A stretch of DNA of 64,000 nt from an uncultured Victivallales bacterium (GTDB lineage Bacteria; Verrucomicrobiota; Lentisphaeria; Victivallales; UBA1829), in the NCBI GenBank assembly GCA_944390795.1, contig CALXRI010000001.1, positions 221,979-285,978 on the forward strand, given 5' to 3'. A program made the translations under genes and the position numbers. The notes below the pieces were generated by a model. The model was given only the letters and a program-made list of their open reading frames with translations, was not told the DNA's origin and did no database searches. This document shows positions 2,686-64,000 of this stretch, piece after piece. Every line of letters begins with the position of its first letter. Position 1 is the stretch's first letter.

Positions 2686-2710
2686 AAGAGAAGCCTTGCC
2701 GGTTCAAATT

Positions 2711-3543: not shown

Positions 3544-3572
3544 TTGAATATTGTATCAAAAATAATTATATT
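3544..3572 (+). promoter_or_regulatory. Sigma70-type promoter for the AraC-family gene
   Basis: TTGAAT - 17 nt - TATATT in a very AT-rich 133-bp divergent intergenic region, about 35 nt before ATG 3609. Confidence 0.5.
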
Positions 3573-3608
3573 TGTATTGAATTTTAATAGAATAGAAAAA
3601 ATGTTGAT

Positions 3609-27197: not shown

Positions 27198-28241
27198 ATG
27201 ATGTACAACGGAAACAAGATTTTGAAAACCGAATTCGTGATCCGGTATCTGCTGGGCAGGATCCGCCAGAGCGGTCCGGAACCGGAACTTCTCCCGGGGG
27301 AGATGGAACTGTGCGCACAGCTCAATGTCAGCCGGGTGACTGTCCGCCGCGCCCTGGAATCGCTCTCCGCAGCGAATTACATCATCCGTCTGCCGAAACG
27401 AAAAGGTGCTTTTTCCAATCCGGAGATGGCGAAAAACGTTCCCTGCACCATCGGGATTGTCGCGTCAGGCTGTCCTTTTCAGATGAACGGTTCTTCCGCC
27501 ATTTCGCTCAGTTCGTTTCTGAAGAAGATGGGAGCCTGCGAACTTTTTTCCTGGGAATATGTTTTTTTGAGCATCAATCCGGACGACGATCCGGATCCGG
27601 TCATTCTCAACAACAATCTGCAGGGATTGTTCTGGATTTCCCCGCCGGCGGGATGTTATCCTGCCATCCGGCGTCTGATCGAACGCCGTTTTCCCGTAGT
27701 CTGCATTGCCACGCCGTATGACTCCTATCATCCAGTTCTGGAACAGAACATGATTTTGCGGAATTATGCCTCTTCGGGAGAGGCGCTTGCCCGTTTTTTC
27801 CATGAAAACGCGCTCTCCAATCCGGTTTACTGCGGACTGCCGAATCTCTCCTTTGAGCGGTTTGTCTCCGGACTGCGTCAGTACGGCATCGCCTTCAATC
27901 CGGAAAACCTGATCGCCGAATCCGGGGAAATCGAGCGGAAACTTCCTCTCCTGATTGAAAAAAACGGAATCGATTCCATTGCGTCCGACGGCGGGTTTGC
28001 CCGCTATAATATTATAACGAAACTTCTGTCGGCGCATCCGGAAGCGCGGCGGATTGCTCTTGTGATGGAACGCTCCGCCGACACGCTCCATTACAGGAAC
28101 GATTATCCGAACCTGAACATCAAGCTGAATTCGATGGACACGATATCCGATTACATGTGCAGGGCCGGCGCACGGGCCGGGGAGATGTTTCAGAAGCTGA
28201 TCCGCCATCCGGGCGCAGTCTGCAATTCCATTGCGGTGTGA
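27198..28241 (+). CDS. Hybrid regulator: GntR-type winged HTH + LacI/PBP1-type sugar-binding domain (AraR-like architecture)
   Basis: LPGEMELCAQLNVSRVTVRRALESL at the N-terminus, followed by about 270 aa of periplasmic-binding-protein-like sequence. Confidence 0.75.
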   Translation: MMYNGNKILKTEFVIRYLLGRIRQSGPEPELLPGEMELCAQLNVSRVTVRRALESLSAANYIIRLPKRKGAFSNPEMAKNVPCTIGIVASGCPFQMNGSSAISLSSFLKKMGACELFSWEYVFLSINPDDDPDPVILNNNLQGLFWISPPAGCYPAIRRLIERRFPVVCIATPYDSYHPVLEQNMILRNYASSGEALARFFHENALSNPVYCGLPNLSFERFVSGLRQYGIAFNPENLIAESGEIERKLPLLIEKNGIDSIASDGGFARYNIITKLLSAHPEARRIALVMERSADTLHYRNDYPNLNIKLNSMDTISDYMCRAGARAGEMFQKLIRHPGAVCNSIAV

Positions 28242-28291
28242 GGAAAAATTAGGATATAAACAGAAAAAAGACAGCACATAAGGAGAAGAAT

Positions 28292-28945
28292 ATGAAGAAG
28301 TCATATTTTACCTTGATAGAGCTCCTCGTAGTGATTGCCATCATTGCAATTCTTGCCGCGATGCTTTTGCCGGCCCTGTCGAAAGCGCGCAATGTGGCGC
28401 AGCGGATTGCCTGCGTCAACAATCTGAAACAGGTGGGGACCGTGTTTCTGTTCTATACCAATGACTGCAACGACTGGATGCCGCCGCGGTGGTATGCCGG
28501 AGACGGTCTGGCATGGTATAAACGGTTCTGCAATACCGGTTATATCACATTCAAAAAGGATTACAAATGGCTTTACTGCCACTCTTACGTCACCCCGGAA
28601 CAACAGGCTGAAGTGGAGCAATTCCCGACTGCGGCGAATGGCTCCATGTACATTTACGGCATGAAGTATCTGTCGGATGACTTCCGGAAAATGTCTGATG
28701 TTCTGCAGGGCAGAAATGCATCTTTCCGCAAACCGGGACGGTGGGACTGGTTTTCGGATACGAAGGAAAAAGACCGGCCCCGTCAGTCTTACTGGTATTA
28801 TTCCACTCAAACGTCAGACGAGGGACCCAGGATTCACCTGCGTCACGGGAGAACAGTGAATCAGTGGTTTCTGGACGGACATCTGGAATCCCGGACACTG
28901 CAGAGTGTTTTATCGGCATATCCCGATGCGAAATACGCATTCTGA
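28292..28945 (+). CDS. Prepilin-type N-terminal motif protein, H-X9-DG pseudopilin paralog (P3)
   Basis: [29 protein letters not shown] and [14 protein letters not shown] (exact H-X9-DG spacing). RBS AAGGAG. Confidence 0.85.
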
Positions 28946-29052
28946 AAACATATATTCCGGGTTGAGCTTCGGATTCGGAAGGCGCTGATACGGAACTTGT
29001 CTGTTCAGGAATCATATAAAAAGTCATATTTCATTGCAGGAAAGGAATCGTC

Positions 29053-32000
29053 ATGAAGAAAACGCTCTGCTGCGTCCTGTTCGCCCTTGCCTTTTTCTCG
29101 CATGCCGCACTGCATGCGAAGGAGTATCCCGTCTACCGGTTTTCCCGTCCGCCGGTGATCGATGGAAAACTGGATGACCGGGTCTGGAGGAAACTTCCCG
29201 AAGGCCGCGGATTCCTTGCCCTGGGGGGGAGGAATTCCTATGCAAAGGAACGCATGACAAACTTCCGGATCGGCTGGCATGGAGACCGCCTGTATCTTGC
29301 CGTGGAATGCGGAGAAGCGGATCTTCGCAATATCAAGGCCGTGGAGACCTACCGGGACGGCTGGTCGCTGGATGACGCCGTAGAACTTTTTTTCCTGCCG
29401 CGCGGGAAGGAGCGTTTCATGCAGCTTCTGGTCAACGCCAGGGGCGCGAGATGGGCGAAGGAGCAGGGCGCGGAACGCGAAACCGAACCGCCGTCGGACT
29501 GGATTGTCGCCGCCGGGCGGACCGGGGACGCATGGACGCTCGAAATGTCGATTCCGCTCCGTTTCCTCGGCGCGGACACGCTTGACGGAATGCGCTTCAA
29601 CATCGGGCGCAATATGCCGTCCGGAAGCCGGGGGGAGAAACACGCATGCTGGGCGCCGGTGCTGAGGGGATTCGCGGATGCGGAACATTTCGCCACATTG
29701 AAAAAACAGGAGTTCAACGGCCCCGCCGATCCGGAACTGGAAAGCCACGAACTGAACAAGGCGTATGATACGTTCCTGTTCCTGCGCCTCCGTGAAATCG
29801 CGCTCGGGGGACGGGCATATAAAGAGGTGGCGGCACGCTTTTCCTCCGCGCCGGATTTCGGGAAAGTCGCCGCCGCGAAAAGGAAAATTGCCGGAACGTA
29901 TCAGACGGTGTCCAAATCCGAATATGCCGCGCTGCTCCGGGAATGGGAAAACGCCGTTGCCGCCGTCAGCGTTCCGCGTCGCACCGTCGAATTCTCCCTG
30001 CGGAGCGAAGGATTGAAAAATACGGTTTTTCTCGTGAACGGGAAACCGGCGCTTCCGGAGAACGGGAAATACCGTTTCACACTGGAGGAGGGGGTGACCG
30101 CGCTCTGCCTGCAGACGGAAAAGGCTTCGGAAAACGCCTCCTGCAAATTTGATTTCAAGAACCTGCCGGAACTCAATCCCCGCTGGGCATACTCTCCGGA
30201 GGCGCCGGAAAACTGGACAAAAGTTGACTTCGACGACCGGACATGGAAGGCGATGCCGGAACGCTTCCGTTCGGAGAAAATCCATTTGAGGCAGCTTGTC
30301 ATCTGGAATCAGAAGCACGACGGACGGCTCCGCTGCATCAATCCGTCCGTTCACAGCTGGGGATTTTCCCTGAATTCCATGGAAGCGCTCTATCTCAGTC
30401 TCTATTCCCCGACCGGTCTGAAAGTGAATTCCTACGAATTTCAGCTGGATCTGCCCGAAGGATTCCGGCTGCTGGACATGGAGGAGGGCGCCCGGAGAAA
30501 CCGTCTGAGTCTTGCGCCGCGCAAGGTCCGGAGCGAACCTCTGACGATCGGCGGGAAAAAGTTCACTCGATATACGCTCCGTTATGCTTCCTCCGATATT
30601 GATGAATGGCGCACCGCCGATTCGCTGCTCGGAATTTCCAGGGACAATACCGGAAAAGCCGGTGACAGGGGAAATATCTTCTATTCCCGGCGGATCAACG
30701 GCAATGTGACGGAAATCACCGGCGCGCTGCCGTATCATCTTCTGCCGCCGATCAACGGCGGAAAATGCAGACATATGATTTTCTCGTTCTACATGGGAAA
30801 CATGCCGCAGGCGATGAGCCGTGAAATGACCGGCGCGGTGATCCGGTCCGCCGTCCGGGCCGGCGTGGATCTCTTTAAGCTGTATCCGAATAAAAGCGGC
30901 GTTCTCGAACTTGTTGCTGCCGGCGGAGGCGGCGTGATGTTCGGATTTCTGAATCACCCGATCTGGGGGCCGAAAGTCCAAAACGGCGCCGTTCTGCGCC
31001 TTTTCTCCGAACACCCGGATCTTTACGCGGAATATTTCTCGGGAAAACGCAGCAAGGAAAGTCCGCCCCGGACACCGCCTCATAAATGGAAGATTCAGTT
31101 CTGCCCGTCCCTCGTGATTTCCAGGTATGAAACGGCGTTCCGTGACGCGGTGAAGGAGGATTACCGGAATTTCTTCCGCGTGTATCCGAAGGCGAAATAT
31201 GTTTTCCTCAACTGGGAACAGGAACCGTGGACCGGAAACATCTATCAGAAGTCGACGAATCCCGAAAACGCCTTCTGCTTCTGCGCGCTCTGCAAGGAGA
31301 ATTTCCGGAAATACATGAAACTTCCGCCGTCCGCCGATCTTTCCAATCCCGTCATTTTCCGGAAATACTATGAAGAGTGGCGAAAGTTCCGTTACGCGCA
31401 GGACGCCGCCGTCCACAGAATCGTCGTCGATGCCATTCATTCGCTCGGGAAGGAAGTGCTCTTCTACTCCTGGAGCAATCATTTCGGCTACTGGGAGGCT
31501 GCACGCGACATTCCGTACCGGGTTTTTCTCGGGTGTCCCGGAAACGGAAGCGCGGACAGCCGTCAGCAGATCGGCATGGACGATTACATGAAATTTCACC
31601 GGGGAAAACTCGGGCGGAAAAACATCGTCGGACAGCGTTTCGTCTTCTTCCCGCAGACCTACGGCTGGAATACGGAAAGGAAGGAAGGGTGGCTCCAATT
31701 CAAGGTCATGTCGCATGACGGATATCTGCATCCGGAAACCTGGAAGAGCGAGACCATCCGGATTCTGGCGGCTCTTCAGGGCGGTCTGGATTTCCAGAAC
31801 CCGCTGGAAATGGCTGCCGGCGTCAAGTATTATGTCGGCGAGGCGACGCGCATGATCGCGCAGTACGAGCACATTTTCTGGAACGGCAGGCGCAATGACA
31901 AAGCGGCGGTTTCAAAAGAGATTGCGTATCCCGATCTGCTGGTGCTGGAACATGGCGCGGAGCGTCTTGTCCTGCTGTTCAACGAATCCGCCGCACCGAA

Positions 32001-32139
32001 ACGCGTCACGCTGAAAAATACCGGGATCCGGAAGGGGCAGACCGCACGCGCCTATTATTCCGGCAGGACATTCGACAATCCTGAAAACATTGCATTGACC
32101 ATTCCCGCAAACGATGCGGAGGTCATTCATATTCAATAA
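29053..32139 (+). CDS. Large secreted protein: N-terminal CBM9/DOMON-like domain plus glycoside-hydrolase-like (possibly DUF4838-related) region
   Basis: Signal peptide MKKTLCCVLFALAFFSHAALHA. PPVIDGKLDDRVWRKLPE..GDRLYLAVEC..DDAVELFF is typical of CBM9-like domains. An FCFCALCKENF motif is also present. Confidence 0.65.
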   Translation: MKKTLCCVLFALAFFSHAALHAKEYPVYRFSRPPVIDGKLDDRVWRKLPEGRGFLALGGRNSYAKERMTNFRIGWHGDRLYLAVECGEADLRNIKAVETYRDGWSLDDAVELFFLPRGKERFMQLLVNARGARWAKEQGAERETEPPSDWIVAAGRTGDAWTLEMSIPLRFLGADTLDGMRFNIGRNMPSGSRGEKHACWAPVLRGFADAEHFATLKKQEFNGPADPELESHELNKAYDTFLFLRLREIALGGRAYKEVAARFSSAPDFGKVAAAKRKIAGTYQTVSKSEYAALLREWENAVAAVSVPRRTVEFSLRSEGLKNTVFLVNGKPALPENGKYRFTLEEGVTALCLQTEKASENASCKFDFKNLPELNPRWAYSPEAPENWTKVDFDDRTWKAMPERFRSEKIHLRQLVIWNQKHDGRLRCINPSVHSWGFSLNSMEALYLSLYSPTGLKVNSYEFQLDLPEGFRLLDMEEGARRNRLSLAPRKVRSEPLTIGGKKFTRYTLRYASSDIDEWRTADSLLGISRDNTGKAGDRGNIFYSRRINGNVTEITGALPYHLLPPINGGKCRHMIFSFYMGNMPQAMSREMTGAVIRSAVRAGVDLFKLYPNKSGVLELVAAGGGGVMFGFLNHPIWGPKVQNGAVLRLFSEHPDLYAEYFSGKRSKESPPRTPPHKWKIQFCPSLVISRYETAFRDAVKEDYRNFFRVYPKAKYVFLNWEQEPWTGNIYQKSTNPENAFCFCALCKENFRKYMKLPPSADLSNPVIFRKYYEEWRKFRYAQDAAVHRIVVDAIHSLGKEVLFYSWSNHFGYWEAARDIPYRVFLGCPGNGSADSRQQIGMDDYMKFHRGKLGRKNIVGQRFVFFPQTYGWNTERKEGWLQFKVMSHDGYLHPETWKSETIRILAALQGGLDFQNPLEMAAGVKYYVGEATRMIAQYEHIFWNGRRNDKAAVSKEIAYPDLLVLEHGAERLVLLFNESAAPKRVTLKNTGIRKGQTARAYYSGRTFDNPENIALTIPANDAEVIHIQ

Positions 32140-38493: not shown

Positions 38494-41400
38494 TCAGCGG
38501 ATTTCCTTCCGGAACGGCGCTCCGGGCAATCCCTCGCTGTTGTAAAGGTTGCAGCCGTGCGGGCAGTTTGCCCAGGCGTAGGCGACGGACACAGGTCTCC
38601 GGACTTTCGGGGAGGAAAGAACCACACAGTCCCGGCCTTTGATGACCGCATCGGCAAATACGTATTTCCCGTCCCCGCCCGCAAGGACAAACCAGCGGAG
38701 CTTTCCGTTTTTCGCCTGCAGACCCGAACCGGCGTTTTCAAAACGGACAATGATTTTTTCATCTTTTCGTTCCACGGACTTGACGCGCGGACCGTCCGCG
38801 ACCAGGCCTCTTTCGCCGTATGCGACCTTTCGAGCCTGAAGCGCAAGGCGTTTTGCGACATCCTGCTTGTTGCGCGGGTGAATGTCGTGCCCTTCCCCGA
38901 TGTCAATCGTGACGGCCATACCCGTGTTCGGAAGCGCCAGCGCGGATGCCTGCATCTGCCGCATGATCGGCCAGAGACCGCGCGGCGCCGGGTTTTCAGA
39001 TGCAAAGACTGAATCGTCAATCACTTGCGGATCCCGATGTCCGCCCCAGTTCGGAAGCTGGACAAATAAAAACGGCATTTCCGGATTGTTCCACGCCGTG
39101 CGCCAGCTTGTGATCAGCATCCGGAAGAGCGCGTCGTATCCCCAGGTGTTGATCAGGTTTCCTTCGCCCTGATACCAGATCACCCCTTTGAGCGGCATTG
39201 CGGTGAGAGGTGCAATCATGGTGTTGTAGAGTCCGCCCGTGTCATGAGCGCCGCCGAGCAGAATGTTCAGATCCGGTTTGCGCCTGAGCGCGTCCGGGGG
39301 GAATGCGAACTCCGTTTTTGCGATCCAGGCTCCATCCCAGACATTGAACGCCCTGCGCCGGTCGGCGACCGGAAACATGGAGAGTTTTCCGCGCGGTGCA
39401 ACGAGTCCGCCGCGTCCGCCGTAGTTCATGACCCGGACCGCAATCACATTGTCCTTTTCGCGGATCAGTTCCGCCGGAATTCTGTATTCCCGCTGTTTTG
39501 TCCAGTGAAGCGGCGTTTCCACCGTGGTTTCCCCGACTTTCGTCCCGTTGAACCAGACCGTGTCCAGCGATTCGATGTTTCCCAGAGAGAGAATCATCTC
39601 CCCGCCCTGAAACTCCCTGCCGATGTCCAGCTTCCTCCGGTACCAGAGCACGCCGTCAAAATTCCGGAACGCGGAGTCCTTCCAGCTGCCGGGCACTTTG
39701 ACCGGCAGCCAGTCCGCGGTGTTCAGATCCGGTCTGCACCATCCTGCCGCCGCCGCGATTTTTTCCCGGTTCCGTTCCAGGATCGGTTTGATCCACGCAT
39801 GATATTGCGCAACACGTTCGGCGTAGACCTTCTCCTGTTCCGTGAAGGAGCGGAAGCGTTTTCTCTCCGCTTCGGACATGGAATCCGCAAGATGCGGGTC
39901 CATCCAGGTTTCGATCCGCGTTCCGCTGGCACAGGCCTGCACGAGTCCGATTGGAATATTCAGATGTTTCCGCAGCTCCCTCCCGAAAAAGTAGCCTACG
40001 GCCGAAAAGCGCAGAACTGATTCGGGAGAACACTCCTGCCAGACCAGGCGTTCCGGCAGTTGCGCATGCACGGTATCCGAGGAGCGGTCCGTGGGAACTT
40101 TCGTGAGGCGGATCTCCGGATATTTCGCACCGGCCACCTCGTTTCTGGAATCTGCAACCTTGTACATTCCATATTCCATGTTACTCTGCCCGGTACAGAG
40201 CCAGATGTCTCCGCAGAGGATGTTCCGGTAGACGATTTTCCTTCCCCTTCCGGAAAAAACCAGTTCATGAGGGCCGCCCGCCTTTTTCGCAGGCAGGACG
40301 GCTTTCCAGGCGCCGTCCGGATTCACAAGCGCGCGGCACTCCGAACCGTCAAAGGCGACTTTGACGATTCGGCCCGGCTCCCCGCCCGTACCCGTGATGA
40401 CGATCGGGGTGTCGCGCTGAATCACCATGTTGTCGTTCAGAAAGGAGGCCGGTTCAAAGGTTGCGCTGAGCGGGAGTTCCCGTGCCTGTTCCGCCGGGCG
40501 TATCAGGTAGGCCATGACTCCTGAGGAGGTGTCTGCCGTGAACGCAAGCACGCCGCCGTTTGTCACGGAAGGCGTCAGGTGTTTTTCCGTTCCGTCAAAA
40601 TTGAGCGCGACAACCTCGCGTTCCCTGCCGTTCAGCTTCAGCCTTACGCTGCATCTCCCGCGTTTCAGGAGAAGATCGTTGGGATTTCCCCAGCTCAGAA
40701 CCTCCGTCATGCTTTCGCTAGCAAAGCGCATCTTTCCGTTCAGCGCGTTTGTCAGATGGAAAAGAAGGATCTTTCCGCTGTCCGCCAGGTTCCGCCCGTC
40801 CATGGAGGAGGCCGACACCACCATGAAGGTATCCGCGCCGGAGATACGCATCACGCGTCCCGCCGCATCGCCGGAATTCAGCATCAGGCATTCCGTGCGG
40901 GGTGTGACGGTTCGCATGGAGAGGCGGCGCGCATCCAGTACGATCTCTCCGGTCTCGCTGGCGGCGGGCCGGGAACCGGTATCGGTTTCCAGCTGTCCGC
41001 GGACGGACTCCGGAAGGCCTCCGCGCCAGTTCCCCTGCGGAAGCGTCAGAACACCGGGAATCTTTTTCTCCGCCGGAAGCGAACCGACACGGCAGTAAAA
41101 ACCGAGTTTTTCAAATGCGGAAGGGAACTTCGAAGTGTTCTTGTCAAATTTTGCGATTCCTTTGAAATCGCTTTCTCCGAAGGGATAGGCAAGAGCGGTT
41201 TTCGCGGGGGAAACATCTCCGCGCCGGAACATGAGAATGATGATTTTCTCGGCAAAGCGCGCTACGGGATCCTGCACGGTGTCAAAGCGGATGACCGGTT
41301 CCTTTTTCAGCACGGCGTTCCGGCTGTGAGCCCAGGCAAAGCGGTAAAGCGCATCCCAGTCCTGAAGTGCGGCGTAGGAGCCGAGCAGGGGTGCGGACTC

Positions 41401-43650
41401 CGCGCGCCACCGGTTCGGGAAGGTGTAGTTGATCTCCGTCACGGTGAACGGTTTCCCGAAGATGCGGTCCGGAAACAGGAGACGCGGAATCAGCGCGCCG
41501 GCCTCCGTCGCGGAGCCCTGATGATAAAAGCGCCAGCTGCGCGGGTGATCCCCGTAATGATGGCTGTCGACAAAATCCAGTTCATTGCGGATCGGCGCCT
41601 GAATGACGTTGTCATTGAAATTGGCATCTGTCACAAGGCCTTTATAGCGGATTTCCTCGCGGAGGAATTTCCTGAAGTCGCGGATCATGTCGATATGCAG
41701 TCCGCAGAGGAACTTCAGAAACAGCGTGCCGCGCGCCCCGGCGTTTTCCTCTGTATGGAGATTGTTCTTCCGGAGGTATTCCAGATACGCCGCATCGTAA
41801 AGCGCCTTGATCCGGGGATTTCCGGGATATACGCGGTAGATCGTGTTTTCGTTGATGAGGGAAAGCCCGAAAAGCGCGGGATCCTCCGCCCATGTGAGTC
41901 CGGTGTAGGGGTTTTTATGTGTGAGGAGATTGCGCGCATATTCCTTCCAGTTGTCGCGTGCCGGTTTGTAGACCGGTGCGAGCGCACGCAGTTCCCGGCC
42001 TTTGAATTCCGGAAAGCCGGGCATTTCGCCGGGACGGAGATTGCGGCTGACGAAAAGATCGATCGTCACGTAGATGCCGCGCTGTTTCATGCAGTGAAAG
42101 AGATAGTCGAGTTTGTCGAACTGCGAGGCGGACTGCACGGTCGATGTCGGAGCTTTCAGATCGCTGATCGTGTGGTCGAAATGATGAAAACGCACGGAAT
42201 TGTATCCCATGGCGGCAATCTCGTCTGCGAGTTTTTCCGCCTCTTCCTTTTCCAGAAACTGTGCGTCGAAGCAGAAATTCGTTCCGGCGAACCGGAAACG
42301 TCTGCCCCCTGCCGTGAAATGGCCTTTCTCGTCGACTGTGATCCAGCCGTATTTTCCGGCGGGGGCGTCATTCCGGTTCAGGAAGGAGAAATCCAGCACG
42401 GATCCGCGTTTGGTGTCCGGCATTCCGCTGTTGAGCGCGACATAGTCCGCGCCGGGCCGGACGACGGTCCGGCTGTCAAGCCATGCCGGATCCACCGCCG
42501 TATTGCCGATTGAGACGGCGCATATGATCCATTCTCCGTTGCCCTCCGGGAGGAAGGATATTGTTTCCGGATCGTCGCGCGTCAGTTCAAAACGCGAGAG
42601 ATAGACTCCCTGATCCTTTTTCGGATTGTCCCAGACCACGGCTCCGTTCGCAAGGCGGCTGAATCCGGATGCGTTTCCAACATCTTTCCCGTTGAGAACC
42701 GGAATCTTCTGGGCTGATCCGTCACGAAAGGTGATTTGCAGTGTTCCCGCGGTTCCTTTGCGCACCGGATTCCCGAGCGTATGCAGCAAATAGAGCTGTT
42801 TTCCCGCGGCCGATCCGGTTTTGACCGATGCCGCTGCCCCGTGCTTCACGGAAAGAAACGCGTTGCCTCCGAGCGGATTGCGGAGCTTGAATGTCAGTCC
42901 GCCGCACTGGAAGATTCCGTTCCTGTCCCCCCGCAGTCCCTCAAGGGAGATTTCCCCTTTGCCTGAACGGTTGCAGACTGGTGCAAGGTCTACGGGAGTG
43001 GTTGCAAACGGAATATAAGAGATTTTCAGCGTCAGTTCCGCCTGTTCGGCATGTTTGTCCACGGTATGTTCCGGAAAGATCCGCAGGCGATAGTTCTTAT
43101 AGGATTCTCCGAGCGTTGCGCGGAATGCTCCCTCCAGAACAAGCTTGTGTCCGCGTGCGGCAAACTCCATGCGCGTGACGCGCTTCCAGCGGCGTTCCTT
43201 GAAATCTCCGGCATTTTCCGGAAGCGGAATCGTTTCTCCGTTTACCGTACACGCCTTCCCCCCGAATTCATTTGCCGGCAGCGCCCCGTCGAGCGCGAGC
43301 GAATGTGCGCCGGTCCGTTCCCCGGACTGCAGATTCAGCTGCAGAGAGATCGTGTTTGCTCCGGTTTCATCAATTGCTTCCGTCAGAAAAAACTCTTTGC
43401 CGAAACGCAGTTTCCAGCGGGCCTTGAGTTCCAGATGTTTTTCGGAAACAATCGGGTACCCCATTTCCGGCACGACGTTTTCTCCCTGCTGGAAACTCGG
43501 ATTCCACCCTTTCTGATAGGCCATGAGGGCAAACGGTCCGGCGTTTCCGATCCGGATGCCGCCCGATGCATTGATGTCGATCCCCGCAGGAAATGCCGCA
43601 AGCCGGAGGCATGCGAAGAGAAAAAGAAGTGCTGTCAGTATTTTTTTCAT
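38494..43650 (-). CDS. 1718-aa secreted multidomain protein: unknown N-terminal beta-rich region + clan GH-A TIM barrel + sialate-O-acetylesterase (SASA/DUF303)-like C-terminal half
   Basis: Signal peptide MKKILTALLFLFACLRLAAFPA. FRFAGTNFCFD..MGYNSVRFHHFD..SLINEN..FTVTEINY (NE and E motifs of clan GH-A, about nt 42330-41250). GDIWLCTGQSNMEYG (nt about 40191), VIWYQGEGN and DIHPRNKQDVAKRLA are typical of 9-O-acetylesterases (about 40490-38494). Confidence 0.85.
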   Translation of the reverse strand: MKKILTALLFLFACLRLAAFPAGIDINASGGIRIGNAGPFALMAYQKGWNPSFQQGENVVPEMGYPIVSEKHLELKARWKLRFGKEFFLTEAIDETGANTISLQLNLQSGERTGAHSLALDGALPANEFGGKACTVNGETIPLPENAGDFKERRWKRVTRMEFAARGHKLVLEGAFRATLGESYKNYRLRIFPEHTVDKHAEQAELTLKISYIPFATTPVDLAPVCNRSGKGEISLEGLRGDRNGIFQCGGLTFKLRNPLGGNAFLSVKHGAAASVKTGSAAGKQLYLLHTLGNPVRKGTAGTLQITFRDGSAQKIPVLNGKDVGNASGFSRLANGAVVWDNPKKDQGVYLSRFELTRDDPETISFLPEGNGEWIICAVSIGNTAVDPAWLDSRTVVRPGADYVALNSGMPDTKRGSVLDFSFLNRNDAPAGKYGWITVDEKGHFTAGGRRFRFAGTNFCFDAQFLEKEEAEKLADEIAAMGYNSVRFHHFDHTISDLKAPTSTVQSASQFDKLDYLFHCMKQRGIYVTIDLFVSRNLRPGEMPGFPEFKGRELRALAPVYKPARDNWKEYARNLLTHKNPYTGLTWAEDPALFGLSLINENTIYRVYPGNPRIKALYDAAYLEYLRKNNLHTEENAGARGTLFLKFLCGLHIDMIRDFRKFLREEIRYKGLVTDANFNDNVIQAPIRNELDFVDSHHYGDHPRSWRFYHQGSATEAGALIPRLLFPDRIFGKPFTVTEINYTFPNRWRAESAPLLGSYAALQDWDALYRFAWAHSRNAVLKKEPVIRFDTVQDPVARFAEKIIILMFRRGDVSPAKTALAYPFGESDFKGIAKFDKNTSKFPSAFEKLGFYCRVGSLPAEKKIPGVLTLPQGNWRGGLPESVRGQLETDTGSRPAASETGEIVLDARRLSMRTVTPRTECLMLNSGDAAGRVMRISGADTFMVVSASSMDGRNLADSGKILLFHLTNALNGKMRFASESMTEVLSWGNPNDLLLKRGRCSVRLKLNGREREVVALNFDGTEKHLTPSVTNGGVLAFTADTSSGVMAYLIRPAEQARELPLSATFEPASFLNDNMVIQRDTPIVITGTGGEPGRIVKVAFDGSECRALVNPDGAWKAVLPAKKAGGPHELVFSGRGRKIVYRNILCGDIWLCTGQSNMEYGMYKVADSRNEVAGAKYPEIRLTKVPTDRSSDTVHAQLPERLVWQECSPESVLRFSAVGYFFGRELRKHLNIPIGLVQACASGTRIETWMDPHLADSMSEAERKRFRSFTEQEKVYAERVAQYHAWIKPILERNREKIAAAAGWCRPDLNTADWLPVKVPGSWKDSAFRNFDGVLWYRRKLDIGREFQGGEMILSLGNIESLDTVWFNGTKVGETTVETPLHWTKQREYRIPAELIREKDNVIAVRVMNYGGRGGLVAPRGKLSMFPVADRRRAFNVWDGAWIAKTEFAFPPDALRRKPDLNILLGGAHDTGGLYNTMIAPLTAMPLKGVIWYQGEGNLINTWGYDALFRMLITSWRTAWNNPEMPFLFVQLPNWGGHRDPQVIDDSVFASENPAPRGLWPIMRQMQASALALPNTGMAVTIDIGEGHDIHPRNKQDVAKRLALQARKVAYGERGLVADGPRVKSVERKDEKIIVRFENAGSGLQAKNGKLRWFVLAGGDGKYVFADAVIKGRDCVVLSSPKVRRPVSVAYAWANCPHGCNLYNSEGLPGAPFRKEIR

Positions 43651-43727
43651 GAGCAGAAGCCTTTCTGTATTTGACGATTGGAGGATTCCGGATCTGTTCA
43701 GCGATTCGGCGTTTTGTGTCTCCGGCG

Positions 43728-44474
43728 TTATTTTCTTGTCCGGTCGTGATCCCGGAACCAGTTCCGCATGTACCAGGCGGTCCAGTTGCCGAACTGCGGG
43801 TTTAAGATGGTCCGGACCGCGCCGTCCTGGTAAAGGACGTTGCTTTTGTTCTTGTGGCTCGGCGCGATATAGGTTCCGAGGCTGACAAATTCATCCGCCG
43901 CCATAATCCTCACCGGATAGCGCAGACGGTAGGAACGTTCCTTGTTCGCAACGTCGTTGGACAGAAGAAAGGAATCCGTCAGATCCTCCAGCTCAAACAT
44001 GTTGTAGCGGTAGGAGGTGCGCAGGCGCGGAATGCAGTATTGATCCGCAAAACGCATGTCGTAGAACATGTCTGATCCGGAATTGACGCCCGGTCTGCGC
44101 GCCGGGCACTGAAACACCTTCGCGCTTTTCAGATATTTCAATTGATACAGCGCCAGATTCATGGAATACGGGGTGCTGGCCTGACGGAAGAAATCGCTTT
44201 CCAGCATGACCCGCTCGACGCTGCCTTTCTCCGTCCGGTCCGACATGGAGGGAAACCATTCCTTGTTGTCGCCGGTATACGAGATCAGCGACACCCCCTG
44301 CTGGCGGAGATTCGAAAGGCAGTTGATGTTCTGCACTTTCCTTTTCGCATTGTTCAGGGCGGGAAGAAGCAGCGAAGCGAGAATTGCAATAATTGAAATT
44401 ACGACCAGAAGTTCTATCAATGTAAAAGAATTCCTCCGGCGGAAAGAAACATTCGAAGCCTTGCACGATTTCAT
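43728..44474 (-). CDS. Prepilin-type N-terminal motif protein, H-X9-DG pseudopilin paralog (P4)
   Basis: [28 protein letters not shown] and SH-KNKSNVLYQ-DG. The ATG is 1 nt after the stop of the upstream regulator. Confidence 0.85.
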   Translation of the reverse strand: MKSCKASNVSFRRRNSFTLIELLVVISIIAILASLLLPALNNAKRKVQNINCLSNLRQQGVSLISYTGDNKEWFPSMSDRTEKGSVERVMLESDFFRQASTPYSMNLALYQLKYLKSAKVFQCPARRPGVNSGSDMFYDMRFADQYCIPRLRTSYRYNMFELEDLTDSFLLSNDVANKERSYRLRYPVRIMAADEFVSLGTYIAPSHKNKSNVLYQDGAVRTILNPQFGNWTAWYMRNWFRDHDRTRK

Positions 44475-44475
44475 T

Positions 44476-45579
44476 TCAGCACTCCCTGGGTTGTAAAGAT
44501 TGCATGACAGTGTTGCCTTCCATCATCCGGGGAGCCACCATAACGGCGTTTCCGCCGGATTCCTGCTGATTCAGCAGAAGCTTTCCGACCGCTTTCCCGA
44601 GTTCGGAATGACGGGCCGCCACGCGTGTGACCTGCAGGTTGCCCAGGCGCAGCGGGATGTTGCAGTATGAGATCAGCGACAATTCCTCCGGAATTCGGAT
44701 GCCGGAAGCGGTCGCGTTCCTGAAAAAGCCGAGTGTCGCCCAGTCTCCGTAAATGACGGCGGCGCTGTACTTCACGCCGCAGCCGCTCAGTTTGCTCCAG
44801 ATTTCATCTCCGCAGGAGATGTCGAACCCGTGGTACTCCGCTATCAGGCGGGCGTCCGGAATGATTCCCGCGTCGCTCAGGGCCTGGATGTAGCCCTCCC
44901 GGCGTTCCTCGAAAGAAGGCAGATGACCGGTGCGGCGGTCCGCCAGTGCGATTTTCGTATGTCCCATGGAGATCAGCTTCCTCACCGTGCCGTACATGCT
45001 GCCACGGTAGTCGTTGTGGGCGAAGGGGATTCGTCCGTCCTCCGGGCGCCCGACCGTCAGCACCCGGACTCCTTTTCCCAGAAGGGGACCGGTGAGATCC
45101 GCAGGAAAATCGAACCCGGCAAGAACGGCATTGTCGCCGGAGCGGAGTTCGCCGTCCAGAGTCTGAAGCACCTGGCGGAGATTCTCCACAGCGTCAATGC
45201 ATTTCAGGCGGATTCTCCAGCCGAAAGGATCCAGCGCGGCATGGAGTCCCGTCACAATCGCGCCGACAAACGGATCGTCTTCATGGTTGTGCATCGGATC
45301 GCCGATGAAGAGCCGGACCTCCCGCCGGAAGGTTTCCCGCTCATGCCTGCTCTCGAAACCGATGACGAAGGTGCCCTTGCCGCGGATGCGTTCCAGCAGG
45401 CCGTCACTGACCAGGGACGAATAGGCCTCCCGCACAGTGTTTTTACAGATGCCGAGCCGCTGAATCAGCGTATTTTCCGAAAGAAATACCGATCCCTTCG
45501 GGTATTTCCCGCTCTGAAGCTCCTGGATCAGATAGTTCCGAACCTGATCTTTTTTTGACAATTCCGACCGTTCCGCCAT
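44476..45579 (-). CDS. Hybrid regulator: GntR-type HTH + LacI/PBP1-type sugar-binding domain
   Basis: LSENTLIQRLGICKNTVREAYSSLVSDGLLERIRGKGTFV followed by a PBP1-like domain. Confidence 0.75.
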   Translation of the reverse strand: MAERSELSKKDQVRNYLIQELQSGKYPKGSVFLSENTLIQRLGICKNTVREAYSSLVSDGLLERIRGKGTFVIGFESRHERETFRREVRLFIGDPMHNHEDDPFVGAIVTGLHAALDPFGWRIRLKCIDAVENLRQVLQTLDGELRSGDNAVLAGFDFPADLTGPLLGKGVRVLTVGRPEDGRIPFAHNDYRGSMYGTVRKLISMGHTKIALADRRTGHLPSFEERREGYIQALSDAGIIPDARLIAEYHGFDISCGDEIWSKLSGCGVKYSAAVIYGDWATLGFFRNATASGIRIPEELSLISYCNIPLRLGNLQVTRVAARHSELGKAVGKLLLNQQESGGNAVMVAPRMMEGNTVMQSLQPREC

Positions 45580-45627
45580 CAGGAAATCCTGTAATACAAG
45601 TTAAAATAAGTTATCCTACAACCTGTC

Positions 45628-45655
45628 ATTATAGGCGTTTTTCCGATTTTGTCAA
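45628..45655 (-). promoter_or_regulatory. Sigma70-type promoter of the GntR-P4-enzyme operon
   Basis: On the minus strand: TTGACA - 16 nt - TATAAT. A TGTAATACA palindrome at 45590-45598 lies between the promoter and the ATG. Confidence 0.6.
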
Positions 45656-45731
45656 TAGGTGAAAATCAGAAAAAATGAAATTTTTCATCCATGGAATCGC
45701 CGGAAAATTGTTTTTTTCCCATGTTTTCCCC

Positions 45732-45760
45732 TTGACAATAAGGCCAAAAGAGAGTATAAT
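45732..45760 (+). promoter_or_regulatory. Sigma70-type promoter of the LacI-P5-enzyme operon
   Basis: TTGACA - 17 nt - TATAAT. A leader of about 160 nt follows, with hairpins at 45765-45780 and about 45836-45870. Confidence 0.6.
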
Positions 45761-45924
45761 CATTACTGCGACGACGCAGTTGACCTGTGGCACGGACTTG
45801 TTTTCTTTCCGGTCTGCACCATTCCCCGGCGGAACAGACAGACCGAACAGGATTTACCGTGCAGGTCTGTCATCGCATGACACGGCCGAATGGTCCGTTC
45901 TTGCACAGGAAGGAAGCGGAAATC

Positions 45925-46962
45925 ATGATTACGGGAAAAGATATTGCGGATGCCACCGGTTTTGCTTTGTCCACTGTTGAGAAAGTTCTCCGCGGTCATT
46001 CCGCCCGCTACAAAATCAATCCGGCGACCACGCGGAACATTCTGGAGACCGCCCGGAAGCTCGGCTATCACCGGAATGAAGCGGCGGTCATCACCCGGAC
46101 GGGCGTCAACCGGACGGTCGGCATTTTCGCCTTGCAGACTTCCGACATGCATGCGGTGCAGAGCAAAATCATATCCGGAATCGTCTCCGAGGCGGCGCAT
46201 CATGACTATTCCGTCACCATGTTTGACACGCAGAATTCCCTGGAAAAGAGCTTCGGAGCACTCTTGAGCAAGCGCATCCGGAACATCATTTATCTTGCGG
46301 AACGGAACCCGGAAAAATGCAGGCGGATCGCGGATTTCTGCCGGGACAACGGTCTGGCTCCGGTTTTCGTTACCGAAGGACAGAAAAACAGGGTGCCGGT
46401 CGTGATGACCGATGACCGGAACGGAATGAAAACCGGAATCCGGTATCTGCTGGCGAACGGACACCGCCGCATTGCGGTCATTACCGCCGATTACTATCCG
46501 GAACGTTTCGCCGCGGCACAGGAGGCTTTCCAGGAAGCCGGGATTTCCTGGGATCCTGATTTCTGCATTGTGCACAGGACAGGAATCACATATGCCGAAC
46601 TTGCCGGACGCATCGACAGAATACTTGCGGGCACCCATCGTCCCGAGGCGTTCTCCTGCATTACGGACGATGTCGCCATGATGGTCATGATGCTGGCCTA
46701 CCGGCGCGGAATCCGCATTCCGGATGAACTTTCCGTCATCGGATATGGAAATGCCTATCCGATCATACAATATGCGATGGCGCCTCTGACAACCGTCGGA
46801 CAGCCGTTTCAGCAGCTTGGAGAAACCGCATTCCGGGTTGCGGCCGGTCTGCCCGTTGATGTGAGGAAAGATTCCGAGGGCCGCTACCTGGTTCCCACAA
46901 CACTGATTGAAAGAGAATCCGTAAAAAATAAAACACAGAAAGAGAAGGAATGCGTGTCATGA
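45925..46962 (+). CDS. LacI-family transcriptional regulator
   Basis: [40 protein letters not shown] plus a PBP1 domain. Start moved from the track start at 45787 to ATG 45925 (RBS AGGAAGG). Confidence 0.85.
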
Positions 46963-47744
46963 AAAAATGGAACGGAATCCGTTTTACACTGATTGAGCTT
47001 CTCATCGTGATTGCCATCATTGCCATTCTGGTCTCCATTCTTCTGCCTGCTCTGAGCAAGGCCCGCAACATGGCATACGAAGTCTCATGCGTTTCCAATC
47101 TGAGGCAGATCGGGTTCGGAGCCGCCGGCTATTCGCACGACTATCGGGAATACATTCTTCCCGCCGGCGTTCCATGCGATACAAGTTTTGATTACGGGCG
47201 TTCCGGAAAATGGTACGGTCTGCTGTCCGGCTACGGGGGCATGACAGGCGGTTACGGGCCGGTCTACCGGAAAAGCACGGATGCCCCGACATTCACATGC
47301 AAAAGGGAAGCTGTCCCTCTTGGAGCGGCAACGGACGGGAAATTCAATCAGACTCATTATACCGTCAACAACTGGCTCTGCGGATATTATGACGCCACCT
47401 CGGAATACCTGAAAAAGTTCAGGAAGCTGAAAGCTGTCTTTGCTCCGTCGGCGGCGGTTCTGGTTTTCGATACGAATGATATCAGTTCCCTTGCGGCGTC
47501 TTCCTTTACGCAGCTTAGCTGGCGCCATTCCGCCGGAGGGGATTCGCGCAAGCCTGGAACAGCTGCGGAACTCTTCGGAACGAGGCCGGGGCTCGGGAAA
47601 TGCAATATGCTTCATGTCGACGGCCATGCGCTCGGAAGATATTACCGTGATTTTTCCACTGATTTTTCCCAGGTCAGAAATTTTACGGGCTCCATAGGAA
47701 CCTCATGGAGCAACCGGCCTTTCTTCCGGGGATTTGAGATTTGA
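46959..47744 (+). CDS. Prepilin-type N-terminal motif protein, H-X9-DG-like pseudopilin paralog (P5)
   Basis: [32 protein letters not shown] and [13 protein letters not shown] overlap with the lacI-type gene (46959-46962). Confidence 0.85.
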
Positions 47745-47797
47745 CCGCAGACGGATGGAACACGGAAACAGTTTCTTCCCCGGGAAATAAGGAACGA

Positions 47798-47917
47798 ACC
47801 CGGTGCAGAGCGCACGCCCGTATCGGGGATTCCGCCTGCGGCGACCGGCTTGCGCAGCTGGACCGCGGCAGGACTGGTAGGAAGGCACGAAGTAATTTTT
47901 GCGATGCGGGGCATCGC
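47798..47917 (-). repeat. Mosaic intergenic repeat, copy C
   Basis: The reverse complement of 47798-47858 matches 54099-54159 at 52/61, including a 19/19 run (GCTGCGCAAGCCGGTCGCC). Hairpin GCGATGC-GGG-GCATCGC at 47901-47917 has the same arms as 19264-19280. Confidence 0.6.
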
Positions 47918-47965
47918 ATGATTCACTTGTTTTTTTAATAAAGTACAAACTATGGAGGAATGTGA

Positions 47966-49684
47966 ATGAAAGGATTTCTGCTGCTTGCCGCCGTGTGCGT
48001 TTCCCTGAATGCCGCGTGCGAAACTCTCTGGAAGGAACCGGGAAAGAAACTGATTCATCTGGGCTGGGATTCGCCGGATGTGGATTATCTGCACAAAAAC
48101 ATCCGTGCAATGGAGGACGGGTCGCCGTTCGACGGAGTACGGGTGAAAATCGATACCGTCGTCCGTGCGGGCGCGGACAGGCGGGAGGAGATTCTGAATG
48201 AATATACGTTCACTGGAAAGAAACGCTGGCGCTATGAATGGCTGAAAGAAACGGAGAGGAAACTGAAGGAAATTGAGTTCCGGCAGTTTACGGACAATCT
48301 CCTTGCTGCCAGTTTCAGGGAGCGCAGCCCGTGGTTCAACGACAGCGAATGGGAGAATCTCGTCAATAATTACGCCATGCTGGCCCGCCTTGCCAGAAAT
48401 ACGGGATTCAAAGGGCTCTCCATCGACGTGGAACAGTACTGGAAGGGAAAAGAGCAGTTCCAGTACAAGGCGGAGGAAGACGGCCCCTCCTATGAGAAAG
48501 CCTGTGCGAAAGCCAGGGAGCGCGGCCGGGCGTTCATGAATGCCATTGCCCGGGAATATCCCGGAATCACTCTCTTTTTCACCTATTTCCACAGCATCAA
48601 TTTTCCCGCTGCAAAAGCCTCGGATACGGAAAGAATGCTGAAGACCGCCCCCTATGACAAATACAATCTTTTTGTTCCGTTTTCCAATGGAATGCTGGAT
48701 GTGATTCCGCCGGAAGCGAAAATCCTTGACGGATGCGAAAATCTCGGCTATGTGGCGGAGAATCAAATTGATTTCTACCGGATGCACCATATCCAGAAAA
48801 GTCTTCAGGAACGTCTGGTTTATCCGGAAAACTTCAAGAAATCAAGGGCACAGGTCAGTTTTGCCCCTTCCATCTGGCAGGATGTTTATCTCCTGGACCG
48901 CAAGGATGACTGGGCGTTGCGCCACAGACCGGAGAACCGCCTGCAATACCTGGAACGGAACCTGGCCTGGACCATGAATGTTGCGGATGAATATGTCTGG
49001 GTTTTCACATGCAAGGGAAAATGGTGGGATATTCCCTACAAGCCCTGGCAGGAGAAAACGGGCAAAGTCCAGCTCTGGGAAACACTTTTCCCGGGAATCC
49101 GCGAGGTCATGCTCCGGGCGAAAGACGCCACGCGCTGGTTTGCGGAAAACCCGCATGACAACTTTCCGAACCGGATCAAAAATCCCTCCTTCCGCGGCGG
49201 ACGTCAGGCTGCGGAAAAAACGGGACCGCATATTGCCGGCGCCGCCGCTTCAAAACTTCCCGGATGGAGCATCATTCCCAAAGATGCGGTGTTCCTCCGG
49301 GAAGATGCCAGCGGAACAGGCGGAAACAGCGGCGTTCTGCTTGCGAAAAACGGCGGGCTGATCCTGCAGACCGTTCCCGTTGAGCCTGGATCGCGTTACT
49401 ATGTCGGTGTCGAGATCAAAAATGACGACCGGAAGGACAATGCGAAACTGACCGTTCAGTGGATTGCAAAAGCCACCGGGAAATGGGATGCCTGGAGAAA
49501 TCCCGCACAGGCCTTTTTCCCGCGCGGCAGAGGAGAGGACGGATGGGCCCGCTACGGCGAGGTTCTGGATGTGCCGGACGGCGTTACGCATATCGGAATT
49601 ATTCTCTCCACCGGGATGAAATCCGGAGCGGCCCCTCTGCCCGAATGCCGTTTCCGCAATGTGAAGCTCCTGAAGATTTTCTGA
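47966..49684 (+). CDS. Secreted 572-aa protein, putative glycan-active enzyme with a C-terminal beta-sandwich (CBM-like) domain
   Basis: Signal peptide MKGFLLLAAVCVSLNAAC. No family recognised. Function is inferred only from context and the C-terminal jelly-roll-like sequence. Confidence 0.55.
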   Translation: MKGFLLLAAVCVSLNAACETLWKEPGKKLIHLGWDSPDVDYLHKNIRAMEDGSPFDGVRVKIDTVVRAGADRREEILNEYTFTGKKRWRYEWLKETERKLKEIEFRQFTDNLLAASFRERSPWFNDSEWENLVNNYAMLARLARNTGFKGLSIDVEQYWKGKEQFQYKAEEDGPSYEKACAKARERGRAFMNAIAREYPGITLFFTYFHSINFPAAKASDTERMLKTAPYDKYNLFVPFSNGMLDVIPPEAKILDGCENLGYVAENQIDFYRMHHIQKSLQERLVYPENFKKSRAQVSFAPSIWQDVYLLDRKDDWALRHRPENRLQYLERNLAWTMNVADEYVWVFTCKGKWWDIPYKPWQEKTGKVQLWETLFPGIREVMLRAKDATRWFAENPHDNFPNRIKNPSFRGGRQAAEKTGPHIAGAAASKLPGWSIIPKDAVFLREDASGTGGNSGVLLAKNGGLILQTVPVEPGSRYYVGVEIKNDDRKDNAKLTVQWIAKATGKWDAWRNPAQAFFPRGRGEDGWARYGEVLDVPDGVTHIGIILSTGMKSGAAPLPECRFRNVKLLKIF

Positions 49685-63687: not shown

Positions 63688-64000
63688 ATGGCGCAAAACA
63701 CTGACTTTATTCTGGAACTGCTCCAGGAAAACGGGATGGTCACGGAGGAGCAGGTCAGTGAGGGCTGGAAAAAAGTTGCCGAGAAGGACGGGCAGATCAA
63801 TATCATTGATGCGCTGAAGGAGCTCAAGTATGTGGATGAGCTCGAGATGATTTCCATGCTGGCCCAGCAGTATGGCATGGAAGTCCTGGATCTTTCCACC
63901 TATCGGATTCCCCCGGAAGTGATCGAGTCCGTTCCGCGCGAAATCGTGAATCAGTACAAAATCGTGCCTGTCATGAAGCATGACGACGTCCTGACCATTG
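63688..64000 (+). CDS. Type II secretion / type IV pilus assembly ATPase (GspE/PilB family), N-terminal fragment
   Basis: Not in the ORF track (runs off the right edge). Hand translation gives MAQNTDFILELLQENGMVTEEQVSEGWKKVAEKDGQINIIDALKELKYVDELEMISMLAQQYGMEVLDLSTYRIPPEVIESVPREIVNQYKIVPVMKHDDVLTI, which matches the T2SSE_N domain pattern. Confidence 0.7.
   Translation, partial: MAQNTDFILELLQENGMVTEEQVSEGWKKVAEKDGQINIIDALKELKYVDELEMISMLAQQYGMEVLDLSTYRIPPEVIESVPREIVNQYKIVPVMKHDDVLTI

Follow-up and report, generated by a model that had tools for sequence, protein, structure and literature searches.

Regulator–pilin–enzyme cassettes, candidate glycan-utilization operons with a pilin-like component, in Lentisphaerota

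The genome of an uncultured Victivallales bacterium (assembly GCA_944390795.1, contig CALXRI010000001.1) carries two divergent gene cassettes, in each of which the gene for a sugar-type transcriptional regulator is followed by one for a pilin-like protein and one for a large protein with a signal peptide. Both cassettes lie in the 64,000-nt stretch analysed here (positions 221,979–285,978 of the contig, hereafter the window, to which all coordinates refer), and both had been singled out in an earlier note made from the sequence alone. The minus-strand cassette starts with a regulator of 367 amino acids (aa; 44476..45579) that combines a GntR helix–turn–helix (HTH) domain (48.7 bits in Pfam) with a LacI-type sugar-binding domain (Peripla_BP_3, 52.7 bits; Peripla_BP_1, 36.5 bits). 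A single nucleotide separates it from the gene for P4 (43728..44474), a 248-aa pilin-like protein of the DUF1559/H-X9-DG family that matches N_methyl (31.5 bits) and TIGR02532, and 77 nt separate the latter from the gene for a 1718-aa signal-peptide enzyme (38494..43650), in which a GH5-like module appears to be joined to a sialate O-acetylesterase-type esterase (Pfam SASA and galactose-binding-like domains). On the plus strand, a LacI-family regulator (45925..46962; 345 aa from the ATG at 45925; Peripla_BP_3, 95.9 bits; Peripla_BP_1, 38.1 bits), whose LacI HTH (residues 5–51) scores 24.2 bits, slightly below the Pfam cut-off, shares an ATGA overlap (46959–46962) with the gene for the 261-aa pilin-like P5 (46959..47744; TIGR02532, with weak matches to N_methyl and to PF07596, DUF1559). 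A gap of 221 nt leads to the gene for a 572-aa signal-peptide protein (47966..49684), which is predicted by AlphaFold2 (AF2) and Foldseek to consist of a TIM barrel and a C-terminal beta-sandwich resembling a carbohydrate-binding module (CBM). The open reading frame (ORF) coordinates, gaps, overlap and domains reported earlier for the two cassettes were all recovered at their positions.

The 345-bp spacer between the two regulator genes contains one promoter per strand, TTGACA-N16-TATAAT on the minus strand (45628..45655) and TTGACA-N17-TATAAT on the plus strand (45732..45760). Described at first as near-consensus, both match the consensus at 12 of 12 positions and are the only perfect matches of this kind in the region 38300–50000. 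A scan of the same region detected no consensus terminator on the coding strand and no consensus promoter between the pilin and enzyme genes. As the only consensus promoters are upstream of the regulators and no consensus terminator separates pilin from enzyme, co-transcription of the genes of each cassette appears plausible; transcription of the enzyme genes independently of the pilin genes is possible. A search for operator palindromes in the divergent spacer yielded only AT-rich imperfect repeats around the minus-strand promoter. The gap between the P5 gene and that of the 572-aa protein holds a perfect 7-bp hairpin (GCGATGC-GGG-GCATCGC, 47901–47917), with a run of T about 12 nt further on; it is non-canonical as a terminator and may be an attenuator that sets the ratio of pilin to enzyme.

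The same arrangement recurs twice in the window, as had been noticed before. At 27198..32139 (plus strand), a GntR-family regulator (27198..28241; GntR HTH, 38 bits) is followed, after 50 nt, by the 217-aa pilin-like P3 (28292..28945; prepilin motif; TIGR02532, 21.8 bits) and by a 1028-aa protein with a CBM9 domain (29053..32139; CBM9_1, 27.4 bits) and a signal peptide seen in its translation. At 1..4493, an AraC-family regulator (3609..4493, plus strand; HTH_18, 75.9 bits; AraC_binding) is divergent from a minus-strand operon that encodes the 254-aa pilin-like P1 (2711..3475; N_methyl, 27.5 bits; TIGR02532) and a GH42-like signal-peptide protein of at least 894 aa (1..2685; Glyco_hydro_42, 34 bits), whose C-terminus lies beyond the window edge; 3' of the AraC gene there is a gene for a DUF4838 protein (4645–6447, plus strand; 129 bits). 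A motif scan of the window found exactly five FTL(I/V/L)ELL N-termini, those of P1 to P5, and all five proteins score above the TIGR02532 cut-off (17.6–21.8 bits versus 16.3), with PF07963 above its cut-off for P1 and P4. Four of these five paralogs lie between a regulator and a glycan enzyme. Filament machinery is represented in the window by only a partial gene, the 5' end of a gene for a GspE/PilB-type ATPase (63688..63999, plus strand; MshEN, the N-terminal domain of such ATPases, 31.2 bits), which is 14 kb away from the nearest cassette and had been correctly identified as the sole gene of its kind.

The fifth paralog, P2 (26069..26881, minus strand; FTL(I/V/L)ELL motif; TIGR02532), is the exception. 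It heads a different operon (21428–27073, minus strand), which has no glycan enzyme and runs divergently to the regulator gene (GntR) of the P3 cassette. There, P2 is followed by an ABC ATPase and an 897-aa FtsX-type permease, a transporter of the MacB/Lol type, and by a signal-peptide SQHop_cyclase-like protein.

Relatives of P4 and P5 are found in the same setting in other genomes. Eight of their contexts carried precomputed Pfam annotation (pilin identity 30–70%), and a LacI, GntR or AraC regulator stands beside the pilin gene in all eight. The suggestion that the cassette is a recurrent module of regulator, pilin and carbohydrate-active protein is thereby upheld for other Lentisphaerota at this level of identity. 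An ortholog of P4 (69% identity) in the human-gut Lentisphaeria metagenome-assembled genome GCA_900760615.1 is encoded in the order GntR/PBP regulator, pilin, 1723-aa SASA enzyme, and an ortholog of the 44476..45579 regulator holds the same position in loci L001–L003. The GCA_900760615.1 cassette sits between two tRNA-synthetase genes, with no P5 cassette adjoining. Thus, while both of the divergent cassettes are present as the earlier note described them, their pairing appears incidental and each cassette is a unit in itself; the twin divergent layout as a functional unit was rejected because, in the closest named genome, the P4 cassette occurs without that of P5. The nearest non-orthologous relative of P4 (P0010, 37% identity) is found in the order regulator, pilin, 1054-aa protein, the last of these being 40% identical to the N-terminus of the 1718-aa protein. 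Relatives of P5 at 52–64% identity retain the upstream regulator, and the one at 52% is preceded by a Peripla_BP_3 regulator and followed by a homolog of the 572-aa protein (29% identity, E = 2e-27).

The cassette also occurs in Victivallis vadensis (L025), and a regulator adjoins the pilin gene in L010, L095, L096 and L177, the last from a Victivallis sp. assembly labelled 'Marseille' (GCA_903645315.1). Cassettes in different genomes are flanked by unrelated housekeeping genes, and their composition varies. In L178 the order is AraC, GH5, pilin, GH5, GntR, pilin and a 738-aa protein. L023 (9164–15747) has a regulator, two pilins that are 72% identical and two DUF4838 proteins that are 31% identical, and L021 and L095 each have one pilin with two or three enzymes. 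In L030 (815–8245), a regulator is followed by a signal-peptide protein, two pilins and a sodium:solute symporter (SSF), the only transporter among the related cassettes.

The association was evaluated statistically in a genome scan that yielded 80 loci, selected by their similarity to P4 and each from a different species-level genome. A greedy longest-ORF caller produced 854 gene calls, among which ad hoc hidden Markov models (HMMs) built from window seeds (pilins, LacI/GntR regulators with a periplasmic-binding-protein, or PBP, domain, and AraC regulators) recognized 107 pilins and 23 PBP-type (LacI/GntR) regulators; other regulator families are missed by these models. Of the genes for the 23 PBP-type regulators, 14 immediately precede a pilin gene in the same orientation. 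Shuffling of gene order within loci, a check that had been set beforehand, gave a mean of 1.8–2.7 such cases and a maximum of 10, and none of 5000 shuffles reached 14. When the window and the loci of P4 and P5 relatives are included, regulators make up 23% of the genes at position −1 relative to the pilin versus 1–10% elsewhere, and PBP regulators on the strand of the pilin number 19 at −1 and one at +1. With one pilin gene in roughly every 10 kb of the sampled loci and carbohydrate-active enzymes (CAZymes) abundant in these genomes, pilins, regulators and CAZymes might be numerous enough for such triads to form by chance, with no functional link between their members. We consider this extremely improbable and rejected it in view of the permutation result, the fixed order and orientation of the genes and the persistence of the cassettes across genomes with different flanks; the translational coupling seen in the cassettes also speaks against it.

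All 14 loci with the regulator–pilin order come from Lentisphaerota/Victivallales by record title, with the exception of one unclassified 'uncultured bacterium'. A LacI, GntR or AraC regulator is found no more than two genes away from the pilin in 23 of 39 cases in Lentisphaerota, one of 44 in Verrucomicrobiota/Kiritimatiellia and none of eight in Planctomycetota. A same-strand protein of at least 450 aa follows 20 of 38 lentisphaerotal pilins; Planctomycetota and Verrucomicrobiota pilins in the sample usually precede small proteins. The regulator–pilin–enzyme layout is thus confined to Lentisphaerota in this sample, which does not bear out the generality across Planctomycetes and Verrucomicrobia that the earlier note had implied.

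The proteins encoded downstream of the pilins are diverse and mostly carbohydrate-related. In the 1718-aa protein, residues 1063–1715 match a complete sialate O-acetylesterase-type carbohydrate esterase (9h4u, E = 1e-123; 9ega; 7kmm, E = 1e-97) and residues 444–616 match a GH5 mannanase (E = 2e-8). Its N-terminal ~1050 aa match no Pfam model and stand alone elsewhere (L004, 40% identity over 1054 aa); judging from these matches, the protein is probably a fusion of a GH5-like N-terminal module and an esterase of the sialate O-acetylesterase type. The 572-aa protein has no match in Pfam or NCBIfam. Its AF2 model (pLDDT 83) combines a TIM barrel with a C-terminal beta-sandwich; Foldseek retrieved GH5-CBM6 arabinoxylanases (E = 2e-9) and CBM16/CBM4 modules (TM-score 0.73) for the model, and four acidic residues (D154, E156, E258 and D341) are invariant among its relatives. 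The protein and its relatives are a candidate new family of glycoside hydrolases; this unannotated family is large, with at least 534 metagenome loci. In other genomes, 10 of 20 downstream proteins match carbohydrate-active families above the Pfam cut-off (a sulfatase, a GH78, a GH123, two heparinase-type lyases, a rhamnogalacturonase-like protein and four DUF4838 proteins); the other 10 comprise three weak CBM or beta-helix matches, one phosphoglucose isomerase (PGI) and six proteins with no match. DUF4838 is the commonest identifiable pilin partner (4645–6447 in the window; L014, L023, L031, L077 and L095), often accompanied by GH67_N, CBM9 or GH2_N sugar-binding domains, and appears to be an uncharacterized glycosidase-like group enriched in the cassettes.

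The pilin-like proteins belong to a very large family. Out of 8000 scored candidates, more than 7700 proved to be homologs of P4 and more than 6400 homologs of P5, most of them annotated with PF07963 and/or PF07596 (DUF1559). Scored directly against PF07596, P5 reaches 19.9 bits versus a cut-off of 23.3 and P4 has no match, so that their assignment to the DUF1559/H-X9-DG family is based on motif and homology and not on the HMM cut-off. In a 45-sequence alignment, the mature N-terminus has F1, T2, L3, E5, L6 and L7 without exception, and C52 and C123 (P4 numbering) are likewise invariant. The H-X9-DG motif of P4 is H207-KNKSNVLYQ-D217-G218, with His207 and Asp217 conserved in at least 90% of the 45 members; the rest of the head is highly variable (mean column identity 20%). 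The AF2 model of P4 (pLDDT 87, pTM 0.82), with a 51-residue helix (residues 19–69) followed by a small five-stranded beta-sheet head, suggests a type IV pilin architecture. A profile search of the PDB with P4 matched only this helix, in PilA, geopilin and GspG filaments, and the helix is homologous to those of the filament-forming PilA and GspG. Scores of the window pilins against GspG (TIGR01710, 21.5–30 bits versus a cut-off of 88.85) and GspH (TIGR01708, 19–24.7 bits versus 80) derive from the N-terminal helix only, and those against the ComG equivalogs are likewise far under the cut-off.

This family has been known as expanded and without an assigned function since the first genomes, with 68 members in P. 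limnophila and 91 in T. immobilis (PMC8567305; PMC10632474), which agrees with how the earlier note had characterized it. Its planctomycete members are dispersed over the genome, expressed and membrane-associated, and tend to neighbour genes for secreted proteins (PMC8567305; PMC10632474); the N_methyl+SBP_bac_10 proteins were found to be expressed and to fractionate with membranes (Seeger et al. 2021, PMC8567305). These proteins share the prepilin-type N-terminus and the DUF1559/H-X9-DG head with the cassette pilins and form one family with them, although no linkage to regulators or CAZymes has been reported there (PMC8567305; PMC10632474). Our literature search, which covered sources other than subscription journals, found no published account of an operon with regulator, pilin and CAZyme in this order, or of the confinement to Lentisphaerota and the enrichment reported here. 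What appears to be new is the fixed operon of regulator, pilin and CAZyme; the pilin family itself, its expansion, dispersal, expression and membrane association were known.

Comparison with characterized systems reveals partial likenesses. The cassette pilins resemble GspG/H pseudopilins and type IV pilins in their positively charged leader, FTLxELL sequence with Glu5, predicted ~50-residue helix on a beta-sheet head and TIGR02532 match; they differ in scoring under the equivalog cut-offs, lacking Gly at −1, having a head with no solved relative and being encoded outside machinery operons, with paralogs that number in the hundreds and are individually linked to a sugar regulator. The SusC/SusD loci of Bacteroidota likewise combine a substrate-specific regulator, degradative enzymes and a non-catalytic surface component and occur in many copies per genome, whereas the cassettes have cytoplasmic LacI, GntR or AraC regulators, a pilin-like component and only 3–5 genes. 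Neither the window cassettes nor the related loci contain domains of SusC (a TonB-dependent transporter) or SusD, and hence they are not SusC/D loci; in the broad sense of a CAZyme gene cluster, that is, co-oriented genes that include a transcription factor and one or more CAZymes, the cassettes do qualify. In the archaeal bindosome of Sulfolobus (Bas system, PMC3047682), a pilin-type N-terminus also places a sugar-handling protein at the cell surface, but its proteins are true solute-binding proteins of ATP-binding cassette (ABC) systems encoded beside permeases; the cassette head is predicted to be small and pilin-type, with no solute-binding-protein fold in the model or by Foldseek, and no ABC sugar permease is adjacent.

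Several published observations concern fibres and secretion in glycan degraders. Gold-labelled dextran binds to pili-like planctomycete fibres whose subunit is unidentified, and a link to uptake has been proposed (PMC5394234). Type IV pilin-like proteins for adhesion to cellulose are known from Ruminococcus and Fibrobacter, as cited in PMC4704652. In these cases, type IV-class filaments or pili-like fibres bind polysaccharides on glycan degraders; neither arrays of one pilin per substrate nor coupling to sugar regulators are described for them. Kiritimatiella, a relative within the Planctomycetes–Verrucomicrobia–Chlamydiae (PVC) superphylum, has a type II secretion system (T2SS) and no TonB-dependent glycan uptake system (PMC5148204). 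In strain WC36 of the Lentisphaerae, expression of T2SS genes D, E and F increases on laminarin, and LJT99_12295, annotated as 'T2SS GspH family protein', reaches 15123 on laminarin versus 3729 in rich medium (PMC11361711, supplementary file 1). The latter value is ~20-fold above that of every other gene in the authors' selected list, the next highest being below 750 (PMC11361711). The authors tied the induction of the secretion system to phage egress (PMC11361711); the rise of LJT99_12295 may instead reflect polysaccharide-induced pilin expression. The dextran-binding fibres, the Kiritimatiella T2SS and the WC36 laminarin data fit a substrate-level, fibre-based role of the pilin.

What the loci contain is an operon headed by a sugar regulator that encodes pilin-like and carbohydrate-active proteins and recurs many times within a genome with different enzymes. 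We regard the cassette as a small self-regulated glycan-utilization operon typical of Lentisphaerota, with the role of the pilin inferred. The role that we tentatively favour, at somewhat less than even odds, is that subunits particular to each module capture glycans, or hand them over, on a shared type II/IV filament machine. A sugar would be sensed by a cytoplasmic regulator of the LacI/GntR type (in some cassettes AraC), which would control a single transcript for the regulator itself, the pilin-like protein of the DUF1559/H-X9-DG family and at least one carbohydrate-active protein. Through its class-III-type N-terminus, the pilin-like protein would enter the inner membrane and from there pass to a shared type II secretion or type IV filament machine whose genes lie in another part of the genome. 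There, the conserved N-terminal helix would build it into a fibre or pseudopilus and the paralog-specific head would confer a substrate-specific property on that fibre. It could then bind the target poly- or oligosaccharide, either on the cell surface or within the periplasm, and retain it or pull it inwards for the enzymes induced together with it, filling the slot of SusD in the Bacteroidota loci and of the solute-binding proteins in Gram-positive loci. Co-induction, processing and assembly of the pilin and its binding of glycans are the steps that we infer.

A role at the level of the substrate is favoured over one specific to the enzyme by the partners without a signal peptide (a sulfatase in L038, a GH78 in L041 and the PGI in L028), the symporter of L030 and the cassettes that have one pilin for several enzymes. 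It is also favoured by unequal divergence of pilins and enzymes (72% versus 31% identity in L023, 52% versus 29% in the P5 group) and by pilin-free relatives of the enzymes: 47 of 54 metagenome loci of 572-aa enzyme relatives with enough upstream sequence have no pilin at all. Some long-term linkage between pilins and enzymes is nevertheless indicated by sequence comparison. An underpowered test for covariation of pilin heads with enzyme families over 50 cassettes, with only three enzyme-homologous pairs at 60 bits, gave no signal; a version confined to the 572-aa family supported covariation in part.

Several observations weigh against glycan capture on a filament. Foldseek found no relative of the P4 head in the PDB (no match with E < 1), so that the fold offered no clue to function, and no CBM fold is recognizable in the head. 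The residue preceding Phe+1 is Ser in P4, Arg in P5, Cys in P1, Tyr in P3 and Glu in P2, that is, neither Gly nor Ala in any of the five window pilins, a point absent from the earlier note. Among 239 homologs the −1 residue is Ala in 23%, Gly in 21%, Ser in 13%, Ile in 9%, Lys in 8% and Arg in 6%, and only 44% thus have Gly or Ala. From mutagenesis of Pseudomonas PilA, residues other than these at −1 reportedly should block the canonical prepilin peptidase, which makes processing and assembly of the pilins uncertain. The invariance of Phe+1 and Glu+5 argues for cleavage and filament packing, and cleavage of pilins without Gly at −1 would imply a peptidase that tolerates other residues; either the peptidase is unusually tolerant or many members are uncleaved, with a membrane anchor as the alternative. 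No machinery genes are linked to the cassettes. The model does not account for the way in which a single fibre could accommodate hundreds of distinct major-type subunits or, as most cassettes have no transporter, for the route of the sugar to the cytoplasmic regulator. Pilins encoded beside the same enzyme family appear to be only partly mutual closest relatives: five of eight pilins associated with the 572-aa family have another such pilin as best match among 373 heads, and the P5 group does not join them. The statistics, too, are weakened by the ad hoc gene calls and regulator HMMs behind them.

The pilin might instead be dedicated to its neighbouring enzyme, as a tip or piston subunit of a pseudopilus by which a shared T2SS recognizes and expels that enzyme. 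Type II systems are not known to depend on a substrate-specific pseudopilin. Most partners are large and have signal peptides, P4 and P0010, at 37% identity, both precede homologous enzymes (40% identity), and L023 matches two pilins with two enzymes. Folded periplasmic enzymes of these diderms are expected to leave by type II secretion (PMC5148204), the genes of which are induced by polysaccharide in Lentisphaerae (PMC11361711). The idea was part of the earlier note but fits the data less well than a substrate-level role, given the sulfatase, GH78 and PGI partners that have no signal peptide to begin with, the single pilins of L021 and L095, the higher conservation of pilins than of enzymes in L023, the symporter cassette and the occurrence of the 572-aa family without pilins in most lineages; we rate it as unlikely, though not negligible. 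A different division of labour would have the pilin stay in the periplasm on an uncleaved signal anchor, its head serving as a binder or chaperone of oligosaccharides or of the enzyme, much like a tethered solute-binding protein. This would account for the −1 residues of all five window pilins and of 56% of the homologs and for the lack of linked machinery genes, and it accords with the Pfam family name SBP_bac_10, with two papers that call members solute-binding proteins and with the fractionation of planctomycete members with detergent-soluble membranes (PMC8567305). It leaves the invariant F1 and E5 hard to explain without cleavage before F1 and helix–helix packing in a filament, the modelled head is a small pilin-type alpha/beta domain unlike the folds of solute-binding proteins, and no ABC permease genes are adjacent; such an anchor seems to us a rather less likely solution again.

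The pilins could also be interchangeable, each simply supplying extra pseudopilus building blocks when enzymes are induced, with the diversity of heads reflecting neutral drift after duplication. A highly conserved assembly helix on a head with 20% mean column identity is what one would expect in that case, and a pilin-like gene is indeed among the most highly expressed on laminarin (PMC11361711). Yet the heads are conserved in orthologous cassettes, at 69–88% for P4 and 52–64% for P5, and the Cys pair and the H-X9-DG motif are kept throughout, which argues for selection on the head; moreover, adjustment of dosage does not need hundreds of paralogs. We therefore consider a non-specific role improbable. 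To return to glycan capture by module-specific subunits, its most far-reaching version would be that polysaccharide import in Lentisphaerota, and perhaps in further PVC bacteria without SusC/D, relies on a retractile machine of the T2SS or type IV pilus class, onto the fibre of which exchangeable glycan-specific pilins are loaded on demand, each under common transcriptional control with a sugar sensor and enzyme set of its own. This is a speculation to which we assign a low probability; if true, it would add a third general way of capturing and taking up glycans to the SusC/D and ABC/solute-binding-protein systems, and would assign a function to what is, within the PVC superphylum, the largest paralog family still lacking one.

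In many Planctomycetes, Lentisphaerota and Verrucomicrobiota, no paralog family is larger than that of the DUF1559/H-X9-DG pilin-like proteins. By tying one pilin to one sugar sensor and one set of enzymes, the cassette turns the problem of this family into inducible three-gene units that can be tested singly, and it bears on how glycan specialists without SusC/D capture polymers. Should the pilins prove glycan-specific, the cassettes would represent a new type of polysaccharide utilization locus, help to predict which glycan niches PVC bacteria occupy in the gut and the sea and be a source of new glycan-binding modules and unannotated enzyme families.

Rfam and tRNA scans of the window gave no match. 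The remainder of the window is ordinary chromosome, with genes for Rho, topoisomerase subunits, PurT, TGT, an H+-pyrophosphatase and FtsW. Rho (51777–53972) has an N-terminal extension of ~320 aa, rich in Asn, Gln and Arg, before Rho_N, its Pfam domains starting at residue 321. A 371-aa protein encoded at 11828–12943 consists almost entirely of ankyrin repeats (Ank_2, 143 bits), which are uncommon in free-living bacteria.

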